From Escherichia coli (GTDB lineage Bacteria; Pseudomonadota; Gammaproteobacteria; Enterobacterales; Enterobacteriaceae), in NCBI RefSeq assembly GCF_044324875.1, contig NZ_CP172185.1: a stretch of DNA of 64,000 nt; one strand, given 5' to 3'. Positions within the stretch are counted from its first letter, which is position 1. Every line of letters starts with the position of its first letter. The position numbers were made by a program, and so were the translations under genes. Positions 1 to 27,720 of the stretch are shown piece after piece. Below the pieces are notes generated by a model. The model saw nothing but the letters and a program-made list of their open reading frames with translations. It did not search any database and had not been told where the DNA came from.

Positions 1-1523
<1,523 letters not shown>

Positions 1524-1786
1524 GAAGGTGAATAAGTGATAGCCCAATCGCCTTTCTGCATTTCATTCACAAAGCGCCAAACCTGAGAAGCACCAGAGCG
1601 AACTGTGCCTGGCTTAGTCTGTGGCTCAAGCTCCTGATACCGGATAAACAACTGCTCTCTTGAGCATCCAGGTTTCACATAGGGAGCGAGCTGCGACCAA
1701 CCAATTGCAACAACCTGTTTGTCTCTGAAGTCGTCGTACAATTTTCCGCCATCACCGCGGATCATCCACATCTTAGTCGCCACAAT
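1524..1786 (-). pseudogene. 5' portion of the IS-interrupted ORF (N-terminus (V/M)ATKMWMIRGDGGKLYDDFRDKQVVAIGW..)
   Basis: Reverse-strand ORF with AGGA about 6 nt upstream of a GTG/ATG start near 1771-1786; protein-like sequence through about codon 85, after which the frame runs into IS-derived sequence. Confidence 0.4.
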
Positions 1787-1893
1787 AATTCCTTCTGAAA
1801 ATACTTCATCGTTATACCGGGACGTGATCATTCCATTCAGCCACCTTATCCAGGGGAAAAACACCGATAAGATGGCTAATCAAAATGTCTGTT

Positions 1894-4800
1894 CTAAACC
1901 TGACGCCTATCAAGACTATTATAAATAGCCTCAATCTCACCTTTCAGGTTATCACCAGAGTAAACCATCGATGTATCGTATCGTTCATATCGCGCTTCCC
2001 GTGTCGCACTAAACCAGTTGAACGATCCCACGCATAGCAAACCATCATCACCAATAACAATTTTGCTATGAACACGGTTTACCAGCTTTGTAGCAATACC
2101 CAGCGCATTCAGTTTCTCCAGCGCCGCTTTAAGGTTCTGCTGCTTCTCTTTTCGCTTCTCAAAATCTTTATGTTCAGTGTTATAGCTTCTGTCAGTGACT
2201 ATCGTGACGTTAATTCCACGTGAACACGCCGCAATCATGGAATCAAGAAAACCCGTTTGCTCCAGCTTTTGCCAGGTCAGCCATGGAGAAACTATCGTGA
2301 TGTGTTTATCGGTATTTTCAAACGTCTGATTCAGGAAATTATCATGCTGCTCCACACCATGGAGTGTGTAGATTTTGGTCTCGGAAGTTTTTAAATCCTT
2401 ACGCTCTTTATAATCAAAAGAGAGCGCATTCTTCTCGGACTCAAAGAGATATTTTGCCAGTAATCCCCGCGGAGATGAGGCTGGCTGGATCTCAAACAGG
2501 TCCATATCGCCGAAGACCAGGAAACTGTCCTTCGCACGGGAGACAGCAACGTTCAGCATGCTGTTATCGCTATCAATAAACCCGCCATCCTCATGCTTTG
2601 AATAGACTGGCGAGAATATAACAATCGCTCTTTCCGCCCCCTGAAGAGAATGCACGGTGCCCACGGTGAGCGACGTTTCATTCGCGCCTGTACTGATGCC
2701 TTGTTTACCCAGCGCCTGTTTGATAGTCGATACCTGCGCGCTAAAAGGCGTCACGATACCGACAACTTCATGAAGCGATTTGCCGTAATGCGCTTCAATA
2801 TCTTGCTGGTTATCTGTCAGCCAGGCAGCTATCGTTTCAGCCTCAAGCAAATTATATCGACTTCCGCTACTTGCCAGCGCTCCTTTACCATCAATATGGA
2901 GATAACCCATTGCGGGCATTAAATTGCTCTCTTCACGCCCTCTTTTAGGCAACAACTTACCGTGATAGCAGAGCGTATTACAGTATCCAATAATATTATC
3001 GAAGCACCGGCGGTGTTCATATAGGTACATACCACGAGCCAGTTCGGGATCATATTGATAGCGCGAAGCAAACTGAGCTATTTTCATAACGCTGCCAGAT
3101 GCGGCACTTTTACCAAGGTCTGCGATTGCCGTATATTTCTCGGTAATCTCTTCTTGCGTACTGCCAGACAGAATTTTTTCCGCCAGCATGTTACCGATAT
3201 CAATCGCAGGAGCAATACTCCATATTGGCGGGATCTGCTCCGTATCGCCAATCACTAATGCCTTCTTAGCTAATGCAAACGAGGCAGCAGCCACTTCAGG
3301 AAGCACCTGTCCGGCTTCATCGACAATGAGTAAATCGGCAAAATCATACAAATAACTTTTCTCGAATTTACGTTGTCCTTTGTGCTCACTTATCTGCATA
3401 TTGCCGGGCAGCATATAGCATGTCATCACCACACATGGAATGAGTTTCATTCGACGTTGCCAACGGGCAGTTACTCCTTTAGCGCCTTTTTTCTTCTTCT
3501 CTTCCTGCAGATCATCAATTCTGGCCATATCCATCAGCCAACGACCTTCCCAGTAGTGAGTCGTCAGTAAAAATGCAGGGAAGCGAATCTGCGTATCAGC
3601 CAGTTCATCGGCCTGTGAGAAGCTCAGTTCCTCGTCGCCCTCATACCCTAAATCAAGTGTCAGCCTCTGCCACTCCTGAACCGCCTGCTGTTCTTTAAGA
3701 ACGATTTCATGGGCGGAGTCAATCTGCTTCCGGTATGTTGTTTGCTCGCGTTCAGCGGAATTGAGCAGCCCATCAATATTACGTTCGATAGTTTCAGGAT
3801 CAGACCACTGATTTCCTGCAATCAGCGCGCCTAATTTATCTTCGAGAAACAGCTGTATTTGGTACTGTCGCTTATTGCGAACCGCCGGGAGCCAGGAAAA
3901 TAATGAATAGATCAGTGATTCACCGGCGCGATATTTTTTCCATTCCGTTTTAGCACTCTTCAGTAGAGTAACTTTTTGTTCTTGCCCGGAGAGTAATTTA
4001 TTTAAATTATCGAGATATTGCTCAATGTTATCAGCAATAAGCTCACGCGCCGCCCGAACCTGGCTTAACGTTTGCCATGTTGCGTTCAGTCTTATCAGTT
4101 GCTCGGATTTTGCTGCCAACTGACCATGCAGGAGTTCAATGACCTTTTCAGGGGATGAACACTCTTTTTCAGGAAAGGCTGCCTTAGCCTTCTCCAGATA
4201 AAACAGCAGTGCATCCTCTACATACTCTTTTGACTCAACCTGGTTGAAGAAATCTTCAGTTTGATATTTTTTGGCGGCCTCAGCTTTACGAGTGCTTGAG
4301 GGAAAATAAGCGCCGAAGCTTTTCAGCTCTGGCAACCATCGTCCGGCCATCGCACCGGTGCCCTGGGAAAAATCTTTCCCGAACGCCTCGATAATGTTCG
4401 TGACAGCCTGGTTATTCGTTGAGGTCGCGATAATGACCGGAGGCTCAGATTTTTCGAGAGCCGCTCGGGCCCACTGCGTGGCGATGATAGAAAGCACCAG
4501 CGTGGTTTTTCCGGTTCCCGGAGGGCCATTAACAGCAAGGATATCGCCATGTCTGGCATCCAGAAAATGGCTTAAGGCATCGCGCTGAGCCTTTGCCAGC
4601 GGAAACTTATCTCCGGAGTGTCCAAGCCTGTCGCTGAATTTTGCTCCTGGGGCCAGCAAAGACTCTGCAGCATGAACCTCTCGCGAGGCGAAGCGATTGA
4701 AGAGTGGCACATCCTTCTTGCAAACAAGCAGGTGATCATAAAGCGAAAGGATATGGAAACTGGCACCGCCAGATTGCGCCGTTTTAACAATATAACCGTG

Positions 4801-5409
4801 CTCAGCGAGTTCATATTGCTCAGGATTTTTAATCCAGTCGCCGGCAACGTTCTTCAGCAGCCTCTCTGAATCATCCAGATATTGACGCCAATCCTGCTGC
4901 AAGGCTGCATATCGTGCTTCCCGTTCTTCATCCGTTTCGGCAGTGTTATCAACGCTGTCATCAAACTTGATAGAGAATGACGTATGTGTCGTTTTATATT
5001 TGTCATACTGCTCAATCTCACCAATCGAAAATGCCCCTTTTGGCAAAGGTTCAAGCAGGTCTCTGGGAATGGAGGTCGCTGGCGTCGGGTATAAAAAACC
5101 CTCACGGCTTAGCAAGGCTGGCGTCACTAGCGGGGTAACAATATCAGGCACGCCTGCGGAACGGTCCTTACCATGCTGCAGTAACCGAAAATAAACTTTT
5201 GGGCGCAAGACGACATCGACCGTTTCGACATCGTCTTTTTCTCCCTCAAAAAATTTACTGACAATCGCTTCGTCAAGACGTCCCGCCGCTATCCCATGCC
5301 AGTGAGTGAAATTTTGGGCGTCTTTCCGTTCAAAGCTGCCCTTTCCTGACTCAGCATCCGCAAGCGAGTTGCGCCAGTATGAGGCAAACCCTAAAGCATT
5401 TTCATCCAT
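1894..5409 (-). CDS. Superfamily-1 (Upf1/DNA2-like, COG1112-type) helicase fused to a C-terminal phospholipase-D (HKD) family nuclease domain; candidate defense protein (Mokosh type II-like architecture)
   Basis: 1171-aa ORF. Walker [13 protein letters not shown]; motif [10 protein letters not shown]; motif [14 protein letters not shown]; motif [20 protein letters not shown]-terminal HKD motif [25 protein letters not shown] about 8 nt upstream of ATG. Confidence 0.85.
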
Positions 5410-5734
5410 TACCAGTCCTATGACTCAATGAAATCCATTGATTTATCGAATATAAAATCACCGTATGGATAACTATTGTCCACGTTGAAAGGCTGGCTGC
5501 AATGTTTTGTTCACGCTTCGATACAAATACTCAGGTTATACGGAGTTCAGAAAACGACCATATCATGCTGCATGGCACATAAAAGCTTTATAACCGAAGC
5601 AGCAAAGGATTACCGGCTGCGCAGCACGCCACGAAAGCCCGTGAGCTCTACTGGACAGCGTTCAGTGCAATATTGGAGTCTGTAAGTCCAGAAAATATCA
5701 CTGTCGAAGATGGTTCTGTATGTAGGTGCGCCAG

Positions 5735-6112
5735 CTATTGTTTTGTCCGATGCTTGCGAATAAAAGCATTCAAAATGTCGCCTTCACCATGCATGACAGA
5801 AAAAGAATATTCACATTCTTTCTTTATCAAGATTCCACATAATTCCTTGTGCAAATCTACATTAACTCCCTTTCCTTTCTGTGCTTTCTTCACACCGAGC
5901 TCACATGAACTGATTAATTCAACGTTACAGGGTTTCTTCAAATAATTCACACCATCAATTAAGCCCTGGAGAATGCATCTATTTGCGGTCGTATTACTGT
6001 AGGAGAAGGTCAGATATTTTATTTTCCCTTCACATTCCAGCACAACTTCCGCCGAACCTTCACGTGTTGCAGCATCACAACTTCCTGTTGAATATATTTT
6101 CACCATCTTCAT
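5735..6112 (-). CDS. Small RNase HI-like fold protein with substituted catalytic residues (predicted inactive pseudo-RNase H)
   Basis: 125-aa ORF; by-eye alignment to E. coli RNase HI: VKIYSTGSCD vs VEIFTDGSCL, NTTANRCILQG vs RTTNNRMELMA, VELISSCELG vs VILSTDSQYV, VNVDLHKEL..HGEGD vs KNVDLWQRL..HAGHPENERCD, with the DEDD positions replaced. Strong SD (GGGGAAAGG) upstream. Confidence 0.55.
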   Translation of the reverse strand: MKMVKIYSTGSCDAATREGSAEVVLECEGKIKYLTFSYSNTTANRCILQGLIDGVNYLKKPCNVELISSCELGVKKAQKGKGVNVDLHKELCGILIKKECEYSFSVMHGEGDILNAFIRKHRTKQ

Positions 6113-6180
6113 TTTGTACCTTTCCCCTTACCAAACGAATCATGACATCCTATATCAAAGGCATTCTCGTCAAAACTTTA

Positions 6181-6960
6181 CTATCTCAGTAAATTCTCCC
6201 GATGCCACTCCAGATAACAATACGATTCAACAGAAAACGCCTTTATTTTCTCCGGCAACAAACATTGCTCTTTAACGCTAATATCCAGCTCCTTACTAAT
6301 TAATAAATGCCCATCGTTCTCAAACGAAATCCATCCCTGATCGAATAGAATATCAATATGCGCAGCCAATATAATTCCATTAAAAGGATCAAGACGTTCA
6401 TTTCCATTCTCGCAGGCAGCCCACGGCTTTATATGGCTGGCACGCAGTAAAGGTGCAAAAGTCGTTCCCGTAACAGGGCATGCCGGATACAACATGAGAC
6501 AATTTTTCCGAAAGGTACCTTGCCCCAGCCGTGCCGCAATCAGCTGCTCGCGTACGGTATCTTCAATACTTTTATCCTGCTGAATAGCAAGACAGTCACG
6601 TTGTGCCTGTTCATCTCTATCAGTCGATATTAACGAAAGAACGCGCTGCTCAATTGCACTATCAGAAAGCACACTCAATCGCTGATGAACACGCTGCGCT
6701 GAATGAGAAAGCGCAGCAGGAGCACCCTGCTCGTCACGCCAACCGACACGCACATCACTAAGCCAGGAATCAAAACGGTCACGACTATTTTTCAGACTAT
6801 TGTGAAACTCGCTGGCAGTTTTGCCCGCTCCAAATCGAGGATAAAACAAGGCAAAAGCCTCTTTCCATTTCTGAACACCCAGTCCTGCGGGTGGTTGAGA
6901 GTTACCATACTTCGACAAATACCACGCCACTTCAAGCAAATCGTCTTCAGAGCTATTCAA
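6181..6960 (-). CDS. HNH-family endonuclease (259 aa); apparent TTG start
   Basis: C-terminal HNH motif ..LRASHIKPWAACENGNERLDPFNGIILAAHIDILFDQGW..; frame is open only back to a TAA at 6988-6990 and the first plausible start is TTG at 6958-6960 with AGGA 7 nt upstream; no in-frame ATG near the N-terminus. Confidence 0.7.
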   Translation of the reverse strand: MNSSEDDLLEVAWYLSKYGNSQPPAGLGVQKWKEAFALFYPRFGAGKTASEFHNSLKNSRDRFDSWLSDVRVGWRDEQGAPAALSHSAQRVHQRLSVLSDSAIEQRVLSLISTDRDEQAQRDCLAIQQDKSIEDTVREQLIAARLGQGTFRKNCLMLYPACPVTGTTFAPLLRASHIKPWAACENGNERLDPFNGIILAAHIDILFDQGWISFENDGHLLISKELDISVKEQCLLPEKIKAFSVESYCYLEWHRENLLR

Positions 6961-7030
6961 TATTACGTCCTGTTTTTGCAGAGTAAATTATCACCAGATT
7001 ATATCTGAAAAAATCATTTACTAAACTGAT

Positions 7031-7174
7031 CTGCTTACCTGCAAAACGGTACTGCAAACGCTAATACTCAGAACCATTAAAAGGAACAAGCAGGTGCATA
7101 CCGCTGCCATCGGTCAGTTTGTACTGCTTATCCGTTGGCCTGGCTGTTCTGACCTTGATATCTGTTAACGCCAT
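7031..7174 (-). pseudogene. intB: 5' remnant of a P4-type tyrosine integrase (intB-like) adjacent to leuX; in-frame amber then loss of homology
   Basis: Reverse-strand ATG at 7174 with strong SD (GGGAGGGG) encodes MALTDIKVRTARPTDKQYKLTDGSGMHLLVPFNGSEY-stop-RLQYRFAGKQ, matching the conserved N-terminus of P4-family integrases; TAG at 7061-7063 sits where a conserved Trp is expected; no integrase-like sequence below about 7030. Confidence 0.75.
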
Positions 7175-7324
7175 GCTTATCCCCTCCCTGTTGGTACAAG
7201 CATTATCGAACCGGAAATACCATCATCTGTACCAACATGTGTTGGTAGATGTACGTTGATATCGGTTGACCTTGAGAGAGTTAATATAGCGAAAAAGGTA
7301 GGTAACTGCTGGATTTCAGGCATA

Positions 7325-7350
7325 AAAAAAGACCTCAGTTGAGGTCTATT
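7325..7350 (-). terminator. Rho-independent terminator downstream of leuX
   Basis: Hairpin GACCTCAGTTGAGGTC followed by a T-run on the minus strand immediately 3' of the tRNA. Confidence 0.7.
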
Positions 7351-7360
7351 TACATACTTT

Positions 7361-7445
7361 TGGTGCCGAAGGCCGGACTCGAACCGGCACGTATTTCTAC
7401 GGTTGATTTTGAATCAACTGCGTCTACCGATTTCGCCACTTCGGC
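7361..7445 (-). tRNA. leuX: tRNA-Leu (anticodon CAA)
   Basis: Reverse complement reads GCCGAAGTGGCGAAATCGGTAGACGCAGTTGATTCAAAATCAACCGTAGAAATACGTGCCGGTTCGAGTCCGGCCTTCGGCACCA: cloverleaf with CAA anticodon loop, long variable arm, encoded CCA. Confidence 0.92.
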
Positions 7446-7640
7446 ACTGAAGAGGTATGCGGAAAACGTTGTGGATTATACCTGTCGCACGCCACCATGC
7501 AAGCGCCAGCTTGCTCGCACCTCGCTAAGTGCTGAAATTTTCAGCATTGCATACAGCGATGTGTAACCTTTGTCACACTCCAGGCACCCCGCCCTGCCAT
7601 GCTCTACACTTCCCAGACAACACCAGAGAAGGACTAAAAA

Positions 7641-8660
7641 ATGTCGATGATAAAAAGCTATGCCGCAAAAGAAGCGGGCGGCGAACTGGAACTTTATGAG
7701 TACGATCCCGGTGAATTGAAGCCACAAGATGTTGAAGTGCAGGTGGATTACTGCGGGATCTGCCATTCCGATCTGTCGATGATCGACAACGAATGGGGAT
7801 TTTCACAATATCCGCTGGTTGCCGGGCATGAGGTGATTGGGCGCGTGGTGGCGCTCGGGAGCGCCGCGCAGGATAAAGGTTTGCAGGTCGGTCAGCGTGT
7901 CGGGATTGGCTGGACGGCACGCAGCTGCGGGCATTGCGATGCCTGTATTAGCGGTAATCAGATCAACTGCGAGCAAGGTGCGGTGCCAACAATTATGAAT
8001 CGCGGCGGTTTTGCCGAGAAGTTGCGTGCGGACTGGCAATGGGTGATTCCGCTGCCAGAAAATATTGATATCGAGTCTGCCGGGCCGCTGTTGTGCGGCG
8101 GTATCACGGTCTTTAAACCACTGTTGATGCACCATATCACTGCCACCAGCCGCGTTGGGGTAATTGGTATTGGCGGGCTGGGGCATATCGCTATAAAACT
8201 TCTGCACGCAATGGGATGCGAGGTGACAGCCTTTAGTTCGAATCCGGCGAAAGAGCAGGAAGTGCTGGCGATGGGTGCCGATAAAGTGGTGAATAGCCGC
8301 GATCCGCAGGCACTGAGTGCCCTGGCAGGGCAGTTCGATCTCATTATCAACACCGTCAACGTCAGCCTCGACTGGCAGCCTTATTTTGAGGCGCTGACGT
8401 ATGGCGGTAATTTCCACACCGTCGGTGCGGTTCTCACGCCGCTGTCTGTTCCGGCCTTTACGTTAATTGCGGGCGATCGCAGTGTCTCAGGTTCGGCAAC
8501 CGGTACGCCTTATGAGCTGCGTAAGCTGATGCGCTTTGCCGCCCGCAGCAAGGTTGCGCCGACTACCGAACTGTTCCCGATGTCGAAAATTAACGACGCT
8601 ATCCAGCATGTACGCGATGGTAAAGCGCGCTACCGCGTGGTTCTGAAAGCCGACTTCTGA
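7641..8660 (+). CDS. ahr: NADPH-dependent aldehyde reductase (zinc-type alcohol dehydrogenase)
   Basis: 339-aa ORF; Zn-ADH motifs ([26 protein letters not shown]); matches E. coli Ahr/YjgB by recall. Confidence 0.9.
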
Positions 8661-8789
8661 TCCCTTTGCCGGGTGCCTGTCGCCCGGCGTTTAAATCTCT
8701 TTGGAAGGCGTCTCGCAATCTGCTGAATTTAGCGGTGAAGAGTGCGCAGCCGTTGCCTATACTCCAGGCAGGAAACTGGAGGATATCTC

Positions 8790-10292
8790 ATGAGCGAACC
8801 CCTGTTAATTGCCCGCACGTCGGACACAGAACTGTTTTTATTGCCGGGAATGGCGAATCGTCACGGGCTGATTACTGGCGCAACGGGGACGGGTAAAACC
8901 GTTACGCTGCAAAAGCTGGCGGAGTCATTGTCGGAAATCGGTGTTCCGGTGTTTATGGCTGATGTGAAAGGTGATTTAACGGGAGTTGCGGAGGAAGGTA
9001 CATCTTCGGAAAAACTGCTCGCAAGGCTTAAAAATATCGGCGTAAATGACTGGCAACCTCATGCTAATCCGGTGGTGGTGTGGGATATCTTTGGCGAGAA
9101 AGGCCACCCAGTGCGGGCGACGGTTTCGGATTTGGGGCCTCTGTTGCTGGCGCGACTGTTGAATCTCAACGATGTGCAATCTGGCGTGCTGAATATTATC
9201 TTCCGCATTGCGGACGATCAGGGATTGTTGCTGCTCGACTTTAAAGATTTGCGGGCGATTACCCAGTACATCGGCGATAACGCCAAATCCTTCCAGAATC
9301 AGTACGGTAATATCAGTAGCGCATCGGTTGGTGCCATCCAGCGCGGGCTGTTATCGCTGGAACAGCAAGGCGCAGCACACTTCTTTGGTGAGCCGATGCT
9401 GGATATCAAAGACTGGATGCGTACCGATACCAACGGTAAAGGCGTTATCAATATCCTCAGCGCCGAGAAGCTTTATCAGATGCCGAAACTGTACGCCGCC
9501 AGCCTGCTGTGGATGCTTTCAGAATTGTATGAACAATTGCCTGAAGCGGGCGATCTGGAGAAACCTAAACTGGTGTTTTTCTTCGACGAAGCACATCTGC
9601 TGTTTAACGATGCGCCACAGGTACTACTGGATAAGATTGAGCAGGTGATAAGGCTTATTCGCTCAAAAGGCGTGGGCGTCTGGTTCGTTTCGCAAAACCC
9701 GTCAGATATTCCGGATAATGTGCTCGGGCAGCTAGGTAATCGCGTTCAACACGCTTTACGGGCTTTTACGCCCAAAGATCAGAAAGCAGTAAAAGCTGCG
9801 GCGCAAACCATGCGGGCCAATCCGGCGTTTGATACCGAAAAGGCAATCCAGGAACTGGGGACCGGCGAGGCGTTAATCTCGTTTCTCGATGCGAAAGGAA
9901 GCCCTTCAGTGGTGGAACGGGCGATGGTGATTGCCCCCTGTTCACGAATGGGGCCGGTGACGGAAGATGAGCGTAATGGCTTGATTAATCACTCTCCAGT
10001 GTATGGTAAGTACGAGGATGACGTGGACCGGGAATCCGCCTATGAGATGTTGCAAAAAGGCTTTCAGGCCAGTACCGAGCAGCAAAATAATCCTCCCGCG
10101 AAAGGGAAAGAGGTGGCGGTGGATGACGGTATTCTCGGTGGATTGAAGGATATTTTGTTTGGCACTACCGGACCACGCGGCGGGAAGAAAGATGGTGTGG
10201 TGCAAACAATGGCGAAAAGCGCCGCCCGCCAGGTGACGAATCAGATTGTGCGTGGGATGTTGGGGAGTTTGCTGGGGGGGAGAAAAAGGTAA
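8790..10292 (+). CDS. yjgR: DUF853-family P-loop NTPase YjgR
   Basis: Start [12 protein letters not shown]..; Walker A GATGTGKT; 500 aa, as in K-12 YjgR. Confidence 0.85.
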
Positions 10293-10452
10293 GTCAGGTG
10301 CGATTTGTCTTTGCCTGATGCGACGCTGGCGCGCTTTATCATGCCTACACTACTGCAATATATTGAATTTTCATGATTTTTCAGGCATGAACGAAGCACA
10401 CTTTGCTAACAATAATAAAGGGAGCTTTCGCTCCCTTTATTCGTTCATCAGG

Positions 10453-11535
10453 TTACGATTTTCTCATTAACAGCCACAGGCTGATTAAGAAGAAGCTGGC
10501 GCTTGGCAGCAACGCGCCGATAATCGGCGGGATGCCGTAAACCAACGTCAGCGGGCCGAAGATCTGGTCCAGTACGTAGAAGACAAAACCGAAGCTGATA
10601 CCGGTGACCACACGCACGCCCATCGGTACGCTACGCAGTGGGCCAAAGATAAACGACAGCGCCATCAGCATCATCACCGCCACGGATAGCGGCTGGAAGA
10701 TTTTGCTCCACATGTTGAGCTGATAACGTCCGGCATCCTGACCGCTCGACTTCAGATACTTCACATAGTTGTGCAAACCACTGATGGAGAGTGCATCCGG
10801 GTCCAGCGCCACCACGCCCAGTTTGTCTGGCGTGAGGTTGGTTTTCCAGGTGCCGCTCACCGTCTGCGAACCGGTGATCTGTTTCGGATTGGTCAGATCA
10901 GATTCATCAACCTGCGACAGACGCCAGACTTTATGTTCCGGGTCAAACTTCGCGGTAGCGGCATAGCGTACGGATTGCAGACGACGATTCTCGTTAAAGG
11001 CATAGATACTGATGCCACCTAACTCTTCGTCACCTTTAACCCGCTCAATGTAGACAAAGTTGTTGCCATCTTTCGCCCATAAGCCTTGCTGGGTAGAGAG
11101 CAACGAGCCGCCGTACATCGCCTGCGCACGGTAGTTACGCGCCATCTGCTCGCCCTGCGGCGCGACCCATTCGCCAATCGCCATCGTCAGCAAGACCAGC
11201 GGAATGGCGGTTTTCATCACCGACAGCGCTACCTGCATACGGGTAAAACCAGAAGCCTGCATCACCACCAGTTCGCTGCGCTGCGCCAGCATCCCAAGAC
11301 CAAGCAACGCCCCAAGCAGAGCCGCCATCGGGAAGAAGATTTGCACATCTTTCGGCACGCTCAGCAAGGTATACATTCCTGCGCCTAACGCGTCGTAACT
11401 CCCCTGCCCGGCTTTTTTCAGCTGATCGACAAACTTGATAATGCCCGACAGCGACACCAGCATGAACAGCGTCATCATGATGGTGGTAAAAATAGTTTTA
11501 CCGATATAGCGGTCAAGTACGCCAAAAGGTTGCAT
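10453..11535 (-). CDS. lptG: LPS export ABC transporter permease LptG
   Basis: 360-aa polytopic membrane protein beginning MQPFGVLDRYIGKTIF; directly downstream of and 1-nt overlapping lptF. Confidence 0.9.
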   Translation of the reverse strand: MQPFGVLDRYIGKTIFTTIMMTLFMLVSLSGIIKFVDQLKKAGQGSYDALGAGMYTLLSVPKDVQIFFPMAALLGALLGLGMLAQRSELVVMQASGFTRMQVALSVMKTAIPLVLLTMAIGEWVAPQGEQMARNYRAQAMYGGSLLSTQQGLWAKDGNNFVYIERVKGDEELGGISIYAFNENRRLQSVRYAATAKFDPEHKVWRLSQVDESDLTNPKQITGSQTVSGTWKTNLTPDKLGVVALDPDALSISGLHNYVKYLKSSGQDAGRYQLNMWSKIFQPLSVAVMMLMALSFIFGPLRSVPMGVRVVTGISFGFVFYVLDQIFGPLTLVYGIPPIIGALLPSASFFLISLWLLMRKS

Positions 11536-27258: not shown

Positions 27259-27720
27259 ATGACACACGATAATAAATTGCAGGTTGAAGCTATTAAACGC
27301 GGCACGGTAATTGACCATATCCCCGCCCAGATCGGTTTTAAGCTGTTGAGTTTGTTCAAGCTGACCGAAACGGATCAGCGCATCACCATTGGTCTGAACC
27401 TGCCTTCTGGCGAGATGGGCCGCAAAGATCTGATCAAAATCGAAAATACCTTTTTGAGTGAAGATCAAGTAGACCAACTGGCATTGTATGCACCGCAAGC
27501 CACGGTTAACCGTATCGACAACTATGAAGTGGTGGGCAAATCGCGCCCCAGTCTGCCGGAGCGCATCGACAATGTGCTGGTCTGCCCGAACAGCAACTGT
27601 ATCAGCCATGCCGAACCGGTTTCTTCCAGCTTTGCCGTGCGAAAACGCGCCAATGACATCGCGCTCAAATGCAAATACTGTGAAAAAGAGTTTTCCCATA
27701 ATGTGGTGCTGGCCAATTAA
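27259..27720 (+). CDS. pyrI: Aspartate carbamoyltransferase regulatory subunit
   Basis: 153-aa ORF with C-terminal Zn-binding Cys cluster (CPNSNC..CKYCEK). Confidence 0.97.

Follow-up and report, generated by a model that had tools for sequence, protein, structure and literature searches.

The window analysed here, a 64-kb stretch of Escherichia coli DNA, carries a leuX gene for tRNA-Leu(CAA) that is 100% identical to leuX of K-12 and, on its lower-coordinate side, the start of an integrase gene followed by a cassette of putative defense genes (Table 1). The side on which this island lies is given by the core gene ahr, which is located beyond leuX at 7641-8660 on the plus strand. At 8660-8790 of the window, ahr is directly followed by yjgR, and the idnK-idnR (GntII) operon is absent, as in 13KWH46 and O17_K12a; K-12 and WP4-S18 possess this operon. 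The 3′ end of leuX (the 7361 side) is the attachment site of P4-type integrases, and the attP core of P4 closely matches it. A search for RNA families (Rfam) between 5000 and 9000 returned the tRNA only.

Table 1. Features of the leuX-proximal part of the island, listed by window coordinate.
Feature	Position	Strand	Basis
Internal segment of Mrr-like nuclease gene, far side of IS621	1..234	-	alignment to L001
IS621 (IS110 family) inside Mrr-like nuclease gene; 326-aa transposase at 340-1320	235..1512	-	NCBIfam IS110 E 6e-76; PGAP IS621 family
Mrr-like restriction endonuclease gene, 5′ fragment (PADLOC candidate system PDC-S02), cut by IS621	1513..1765	-	comparison with L001
MkoC, single-protein type II Mokosh (helicase + PLD nuclease), 1171 aa, predicted	1894..5409	-	PADLOC PDLC03924, 1688 bits
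125-aa ORF, N-terminal half RNase HI-like	5735..6112	-	NCBIfam NF001236 E 2e-11, well below family cut-off
HNH endonuclease, 259 aa, first cassette gene	6181..6960	-	PADLOC HNH E 9e-21; Pfam HNH_2; PGAP 'HNH endonuclease'
70-bp HNH leader with TATAAT hexamer, not integrase-derived	6961..7030	-	alignment with ICE loci L008, L009
Ten post-stop integrase codons, RLQYRFAGKQ	7031..7060	-	alignment, tblastn
TAG replacing conserved TGG	7061..7063	-	alignments to K-12, AH62, ten other-genus integrases, P4 int
Integrase stub, 37 codons of the N-terminal Arm DNA-binding domain	7064..7174	-	ORF, Pfam, tblastn, RefSeq
leuX-to-integrase spacer (old attL arm + int upstream region)	7175..7360	-	conserved with K-12 and AH62
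Terminator-like hairpin and T-run just 3′ of leuX	7330..7347	-	sequence
leuX, tRNA-Leu(CAA)	7361..7445	-	ARAGORN; Rfam RF00005, 59.4 bits

In the spacer that separates leuX from the integrase start, TGTTGGTA/TACCAACA occurs three times (7189-7196, 7230-7237 and 7240-7247), and one pair of these copies is near-palindromic. Since the annotated attP arm repeats of P4 occupy the equivalent position, these copies may be regarded as candidate arm-type binding sites. Two alleles of the spacer occur that are ~80% identical to each other, and the stub itself is 97-100% identical among its copies. In the 13KWH46-type allele, 12 nt of the repeat-bearing region (7189-7247) are deleted and another hairpin sequence takes the place of the hairpin that follows leuX in the window.

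All genes of the cassette are encoded on the minus strand, co-directional with the stub and separated by short gaps. The protein encoded by mkoC matches the PADLOC model over its full length (residues 1-1169 against model positions 1-1135 of 1136) and contains the Pfam domains AAA_11, AAA_12 and PLDc_2, so that its sequence is that expected of a type II Mokosh system, i.e., a single protein with a helicase and a C-terminal PLD nuclease domain. The RNase-HI-like part of the 125-aa ORF comprises ~70 residues; this ORF is always found between the HNH and MkoC genes and does not belong to the one-gene Mokosh II system as described.

The Mrr-like nuclease gene, which is intact at 13878-14867 of L001, the locus of the closest fully sequenced relative, is interrupted in the window by IS621, the two joints having 2 bp in common. 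Thirteen complete E. coli genomes carry this same insertion. The IS110 family is the group of bridge-RNA-guided recombinases, and the IS621 transposase is the sole recombinase encoded in 1-7360 of the window. Position 1 of the window corresponds to L001 14383, ~500 nt before the 3′ end of the nuclease gene; the island thus extends beyond the window start. In the related strain WP4-S18-ESBL-07 the island spans ~19.5 kb from leuX to nanS and lacks an integrase; its outer part has genes for a type I restriction-modification (R-M) system, for an N6 methylase and for an AAA ATPase. The distal cargo that follows the four-gene module varies: some strains have type I R-M, in part accompanied by a TIR protein, and others a DUF499/DUF3780/DUF1156/PLD system with ISL3 and fosA7.5.

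The integrase stub and its relatives

As a first-pass annotation had proposed from the sequence alone, the leuX-proximal end of the island consists of an N-terminal integrase fragment of about 37 codons, and its placement at 7031-7174 proved exact by ORF, alignment and tblastn. The ORF begins 186 nt downstream of the leuX 3′ end and reads away from the tRNA gene, which is the placement of a P4-type integrase and is the same for K-12 intB and AH62 int. It encodes the 37-aa peptide MALTDIKVRTARPTDKQYKLTDGSGMHLLVPFNGSEY* (7061-7174 on the minus strand including the stop), is terminated by TAG and has kept a start codon and a Shine-Dalgarno-like motif, GGAGGGG. The TAG occupies codon 38, the position of a conserved Trp (TGG), and is followed by ten more in-frame integrase codons, the last integrase-derived base being 7031; both the displaced Trp and the short continuation had been called correctly.

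When the integrase of AH62 (421 aa) was used as a tblastn query, residues 1-48 matched 7174-7031 with 83% identity (E 9e-20), and residues 49-421 were found neither in the 64-kb window nor in 40-kb stretches of related genomes. The claim that the integrase is gone is thereby upheld: both the central core-binding domain (PF22022; residues 98-192 in the AH62 relative) and the catalytic domain with the active-site Tyr (PF00589; residues 209-383) are missing from the window by tblastn. With the TAG read as Trp, the 48 residues match positions 1-43 of the 83 of Arm-DNA-bind_3 (PF13356, E 1.3e-9). The match to the start of a P4-type integrase is far beyond chance, and the partial domain match suffices to show ancestry, the domain itself being interrupted by the stop and not intact. 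As the central and catalytic domains are missing, the stub is best described as a pseudogene remnant of a family member and not as a functional member. Of the gene, 47 codons, or ~11% of the original length, are kept. RefSeq lists the same 111 nt as 'DUF4102 domain-containing protein, incomplete, missing C-terminus', i.e., the stub is an ordinary pseudogene that is already annotated in public E. coli genomes.

Alignment to the leuX-intB region of K-12, which the first-pass annotation had named as a check, shows near-identity from leuX to ~7031, TGG opposite the TAG, and then a loss of similarity. TGG is present at codon 38 in 12 of 12 relatives; it was seen in K-12 intB, in AH62 and in ten integrases from a scan of other species, and P4 int likewise has TGG at the aligned position, with a conserved GSKYW motif. 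The scan covered species-representative genomes, one per species, by exact-pattern matching with a degenerate 35-mer that ends before the breakpoint. It returned ten loci, in Rahnella, Lonsdalea, Escherichia sp., Serratia, Erwinia, Entomohabitans, Pantoea, Kosakonia and two oddly labelled contigs. All of them carry TGG and continue into integrase sequence, with open frames of ~420 aa where the contig permits, and none has the junction described below; two of the ten are themselves disrupted. Even between distant genera (Rahnella, Lonsdalea, Pantoea, Kosakonia, Entomohabitans), the DNA of this integrase lineage is ~90% identical. It is also found in contigs labelled Collinsella and Chryseobacterium, which look like contamination or mislabelling. 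The AH62 integrase, the nearest full-length relative of the stub, has an Arm-DNA-bind_3/Phage_int_M/Phage_integrase architecture (Pfam) and shares 58.5% identity with P4 Int across 97% of its length, which makes 'P4-type' a fair family label for the ancestor of the stub.

Every stub variant examined carries H31P, K36E and W38* at sites that are invariant in the 12 relatives. Pro32, also invariant in these relatives, is lost in all variants, being replaced by Phe in the window and by Leu in some alleles. At another invariant site K12R occurs in the window allele only, and D45A affects a D/E position. These replacements fit relaxed constraint, and could in part be lineage-specific instead of resulting from decay; they are not conclusive for decay because the best match found for a full-length parent integrase in E. 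coli is only 90.9% identical over the stub.

Truncation of the leuX-type integrase gene is commonplace. The gene is near full length in 1,837 genomes. Another recurrent truncation joins integrase nt 1-~450 to a phosphoethanolamine transferase gene, as seen with query positions 1-633 (the 186-nt leuX-int spacer included), and genomes of the EDL933 type have kept only ~35% of the gene.

The junction with the defense cassette

Integrase homology ends at 7030/7031 and gives way to the 70-bp leader and the HNH endonuclease gene, which starts at 6960, 70 nt after the breakpoint. In a four-way alignment the window tracks the integrase through ...CGTTTTGCAGGTAAGCAG (last base 7031) and, from ATCAGTTTAGTAAATGATTTTTTCAGATATAATCTGG... 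(7030 down), tracks the region upstream of an HNH gene in an integrative conjugative element (ICE) of strains CREC-2 and A31, the backbone of which is of the PFL_4669/STY4528 type. The ICE copy is 92% identical to the window over the leader and the entire HNH gene, and similarity ends ~10 nt past the HNH stop. The junction accordingly joins integrase codon 47 to a one-gene segment that is also present in ICE cargo regions. In the ICE loci L008 and L009, the HNH gene with its leader (~6930-7790, equivalent to window 6181-7030) is followed by other defense cargo, and in A31 the ICE HNH gene is itself cut after 246 nt.

Of 5,426 complete E. coli genomes, 141 match a 151-bp query centered on the junction; each has a single copy, chromosomal in every case, with 96.7-100% identity. 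A contiguous query running from the stub across the junction through the HNH gene and the RNase-H-like ORF was covered in exactly 141 genomes as well, indicating that the HNH/RNase-H-like cassette is always attached to the stub in this collection. The HNH gene alone matched 161 genomes; the 20 extra genomes have partial matches of 90-95% identity, and both of those examined are ICE copies. All junction neighborhoods that we examined lie in the leuX region. TAG and breakpoint are the same in five sequence variants (the window, O17_K12a, 13KWH46, 2016C-3878 and OkiPb01713), as well as in ten further assemblies that carry an identical HNH protein; the nonsense change and the shortening are both present in every copy. 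As TAG and breakpoint are shared across variants, always chromosomal and always joined to the HNH and RNase-H-like genes, we infer that a single ancestral event probably lies behind the junction. The recurrence of TAG and breakpoint in 141 genomes also bears out the description of this tRNA-proximal boundary as a fossil, and the single breakpoint makes the stub a handy marker for tracing the lineage of the island.

In our view the stub is very probably what is left of a P4-type tyrosine integrase gene, now inactive, by which the island was once integrated into the 3′ end of leuX. Two lesions killed this gene, the change of TGG to TAG at codon 38 and the loss of the sequence after codon 47. The loss could have occurred by an internal deletion or by illegitimate recombination with an ICE-like donor, and removed ~89% of the gene including the central and catalytic domains. 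The same event fused the stub directly to the HNH leader that heads the defense cassette (HNH, RNase-H-like ORF, MkoC, Mrr-like nuclease), and presumably happened once, to be carried on in the 141 of 5,426 genomes.

A more far-reaching interpretation is that the HNH gene and its 70-bp leader serve as a portable anchor common to ICE cargo regions and the leuX hotspot, the junction being the scar of an integrase-independent capture of ICE-derived defense cargo. We consider this improbable. If it were true, shared anchors and not integrases would drive the turnover of defense genes at the most heavily occupied defense hotspot of E. coli.

Mobility of the leuX island

The first-pass annotation had proposed a search beyond the window start for a distal copy of the leuX 3′ end to define the island. 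The 23-nt leuX 3′ end, with up to three mismatches allowed, was not found elsewhere in the window or in L001, and sliding 13- to 24-mers of the last 45 nt of leuX had no copy elsewhere in the window or in the ~20-kb islands of L001 and L004; since the island's own distal end lies beyond the window start, this absence covers the window and these relatives. In other relatives, namely islands of the 13KWH46 and OkiPb01713 types, degenerate distal leuX repeats with a 15-nt exact core are present; degenerate copies were located in L003, where the repeat is interrupted by 7 nt, and in L010. Between leuX and nanS, no integrase is annotated in L001 or L004, and tblastn detected none.

A second, older fossil boundary is found near nanS, where a degenerate leuX repeat accompanies a region resembling the int upstream region without an integrase (L003 ~1380-1590; L021 ~27400-27650; L010 23428-23448). 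It is followed by a fragment of a PT-DNA restriction endonuclease gene and another HNH gene. AH62 has the same int-less boundary beside a more eroded repeat.

An identity profile in 500-nt steps showed that 2513-8012 is ~100% identical to WP4-S18, with only 93-97% identity beyond ~8000, and that 7013-11000 is ~100% identical to O17_K12a, with 95-98% within the island. Positions 1513-2512 resemble the O17_K12a/13KWH46 type, and for window 1-2600 the best match in a complete genome is 97.6%. By this profile the window is a mosaic in which homologous recombination has combined two lineages, the breakpoints being located inside mkoC and near leuX/ahr, and the stub and cassette thus move between lineages by this route. 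This agrees with the identification of leuX as one of two major centers of phylogenetic incongruence, or recombination hotspots, in E. coli (Touchon et al. 2009, PMC2617782).

In several strains leuX and the stub are separated by further elements. One such element, of 12.4 kb (L007 35128-47466), is found in 2016C-3878, with a 43-bp copy of the leuX 3′ end at the joint. It encodes a 423-aa integrase that is unrelated to the P4-type integrases (no tblastn match), a serine recombinase and a 'phage baseplate protein'. OkiPb01713 has a P4-like satellite at this position, the flank of which is nearly identical to the P4 attP arm. Of the ten genomic contexts examined for an identical HNH protein, four contain another element at this place, in two cases a P4-like satellite and in one case each a resolvase/HNH_5 element and an H-NS/AlpA element, with leuX repeats that are either 24-25 bp long or degenerate and ~20 bp long. 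These insertions show that leuX, which is intact, still serves as an attachment site for integrase-bearing elements, which push the stub inward.

The stub island itself is probably unable to excise on its own, given that its integrase is missing and that a close relative also lacks a distal leuX repeat. It might nevertheless be mobilized in trans, if the leuX-specific integrase of a tandem element recombined leuX with a surviving distal repeat and took the island along as a passenger. In favor of this, tandem arrays are common, the OkiPb01713 and 13KWH46 types keep a distal repeat with a 15-nt exact core, and the int upstream region with its candidate arm repeats is retained. Against it, the surviving distal repeats are degenerate, and islands of the L001 and L004 types have none at all. 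In addition, the incoming integrases, which are ~58% identical to this lineage or belong to another family, may not recognize the arm sites, and the junction was never found on plasmids or, among the neighborhoods examined, outside the leuX region. Passenger mobilization is thus an unlikely route.

We therefore qualify the earlier view that the cassette downstream of the decayed integrase is probably fixed rather than mobile. It stands in part, in that there is no integrase and L001 has no distal leuX repeat; the mosaic structure, the variable cargo, the degenerate distal repeats of some relatives and the tandem elements speak against a cassette that is fixed in every respect. Under the preferred reading of the stub as the remnant of an inactivated P4-type integrase gene, the island would have no site-specific excision or integration of its own. 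It changes at present by homologous recombination via shared flanks, replacement of distal cargo, IS insertion and slow decay of the stub, and new integrase-bearing elements enter at leuX and shift it inward.

Alternative roles of the stub and comparison with known systems

The stub and leader might have persisted because they are useful, providing a promoter or 5′ transcript for the co-directional HNH-MkoC defense genes. Stub, leader and the four cassette genes share one strand with short gaps, and the leader, which accompanies the HNH gene in the ICE too, contains a perfect TATAAT; a sigma-70 consensus promoter, however, was not called anywhere in 6850-7470, and the ICE copy works from the leader without integrase sequence. 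The junction is unchanged in 141 genomes, which linkage to a selected cassette would explain equally well. Moreover, ~65 of these 141 genomes, as estimated from evenly spaced result rows, have lost 49 bp between two 9-bp direct repeats, TGCTTATCC (7125-7133 and 7174-7182), and with them the start codon and 16 codons of the stub; the cassette is still present in these genomes. A regulatory function of the stub and leader is, in light of these findings, doubtful.

It is much less probable still that the 37-aa ORF yields a small protein with a function of its own, which as a free Arm-domain peptide would bind to arm sites. In its favor, the start codon and Shine-Dalgarno-like motif are retained, and gene callers predict it in many assemblies; yet the peptide covers only 43 of the 83 Arm-domain positions, residues that are invariant in the 12 relatives are replaced, and nearly half of the carriers lack the start codon and first 16 codons. 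Because of these replacements and the variants with the 49-bp deletion, a functional micro-ORF was rejected. The first-pass annotation had also considered that a misread frame might conceal a full-length integrase gene, but none was found in the interval or in the 64-kb window, and a misreading or sequencing error has a negligible chance of being correct, as the sequence is identical in many independent complete genomes, the HNH gene begins 70 nt past the breakpoint and tblastn detects no further integrase similarity in any frame. Displacement of the rest of the integrase to another place, by inversion or by insertion of the cassette into the gene, was likewise rejected, because tblastn found nothing beyond residues 1-48.

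By itself an inactivated integrase gene at leuX matters little: decayed integrases at tRNA-linked islands are textbook knowledge, and RefSeq already flags the stub as an incomplete pseudogene. Its closest named relative is intB of the K-12 cryptic prophage PR-Y, which resembles the stub in locus, orientation to leuX and integrase family, can be closely aligned with it from leuX to codon 47, and is also inactivated by a nonsense mutation and annotated as a pseudogene. In contrast to the stub, K-12 intB is near full length, has its nonsense mutation in codon 19 (TAG for AAA), and retains TGG as codon 38. The P4 satellite shares with the AH62 relative of the stub the same three-domain integrase layout, at the 58.5% identity over 97% given above, whereas no P4 genes follow the stub in the island considered here, and the arm repeats of P4 are of the GGGGGCA type as opposed to the TGTTGGTA repeats at the stub.

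In classic tRNA-linked islands, virulence genes are enclosed by direct repeats of the tRNA 3′ end, and such islands can be stabilized by decay of their integrase, as is the case for PAI II of uropathogenic E. coli (UPEC) 536 at leuX. The stub island likewise has a P4-type integrase at its tRNA-proximal end and, like them, would have lost mobility through mutation and deletion of this integrase. It differs from them in that its cargo is devoted to anti-phage defense and its distal repeat is absent or degenerate.

The leuX site has been described as defense-island hotspot #37, at which 68% of the occupied cases have no detectable mobile element and the mode of mobilization is unclear (Hochhauser et al. 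2023, PMC10121019). Our island occupies the same site, with ahr and leuX on one flank and nanS on the other (as seen in L001), and carries defense cargo consisting of MkoC, the Mrr-like nuclease of PDC-S02 and HNH, with type I R-M further out. Its modest value is that of a worked example for the point made in PMC10121019 that most occupied leuX hotspots are without a recognizable mobile element: the stub island persists and diversifies by homologous recombination, tandem accretion of new elements at an intact leuX and piecemeal replacement of cargo. A leuX-proximal integrase has been described as the mobilizing activity at hotspot #37 (2025 review, PMC12707154); at the stub island, by contrast, this integrase is reduced to a remnant of 47 codons.
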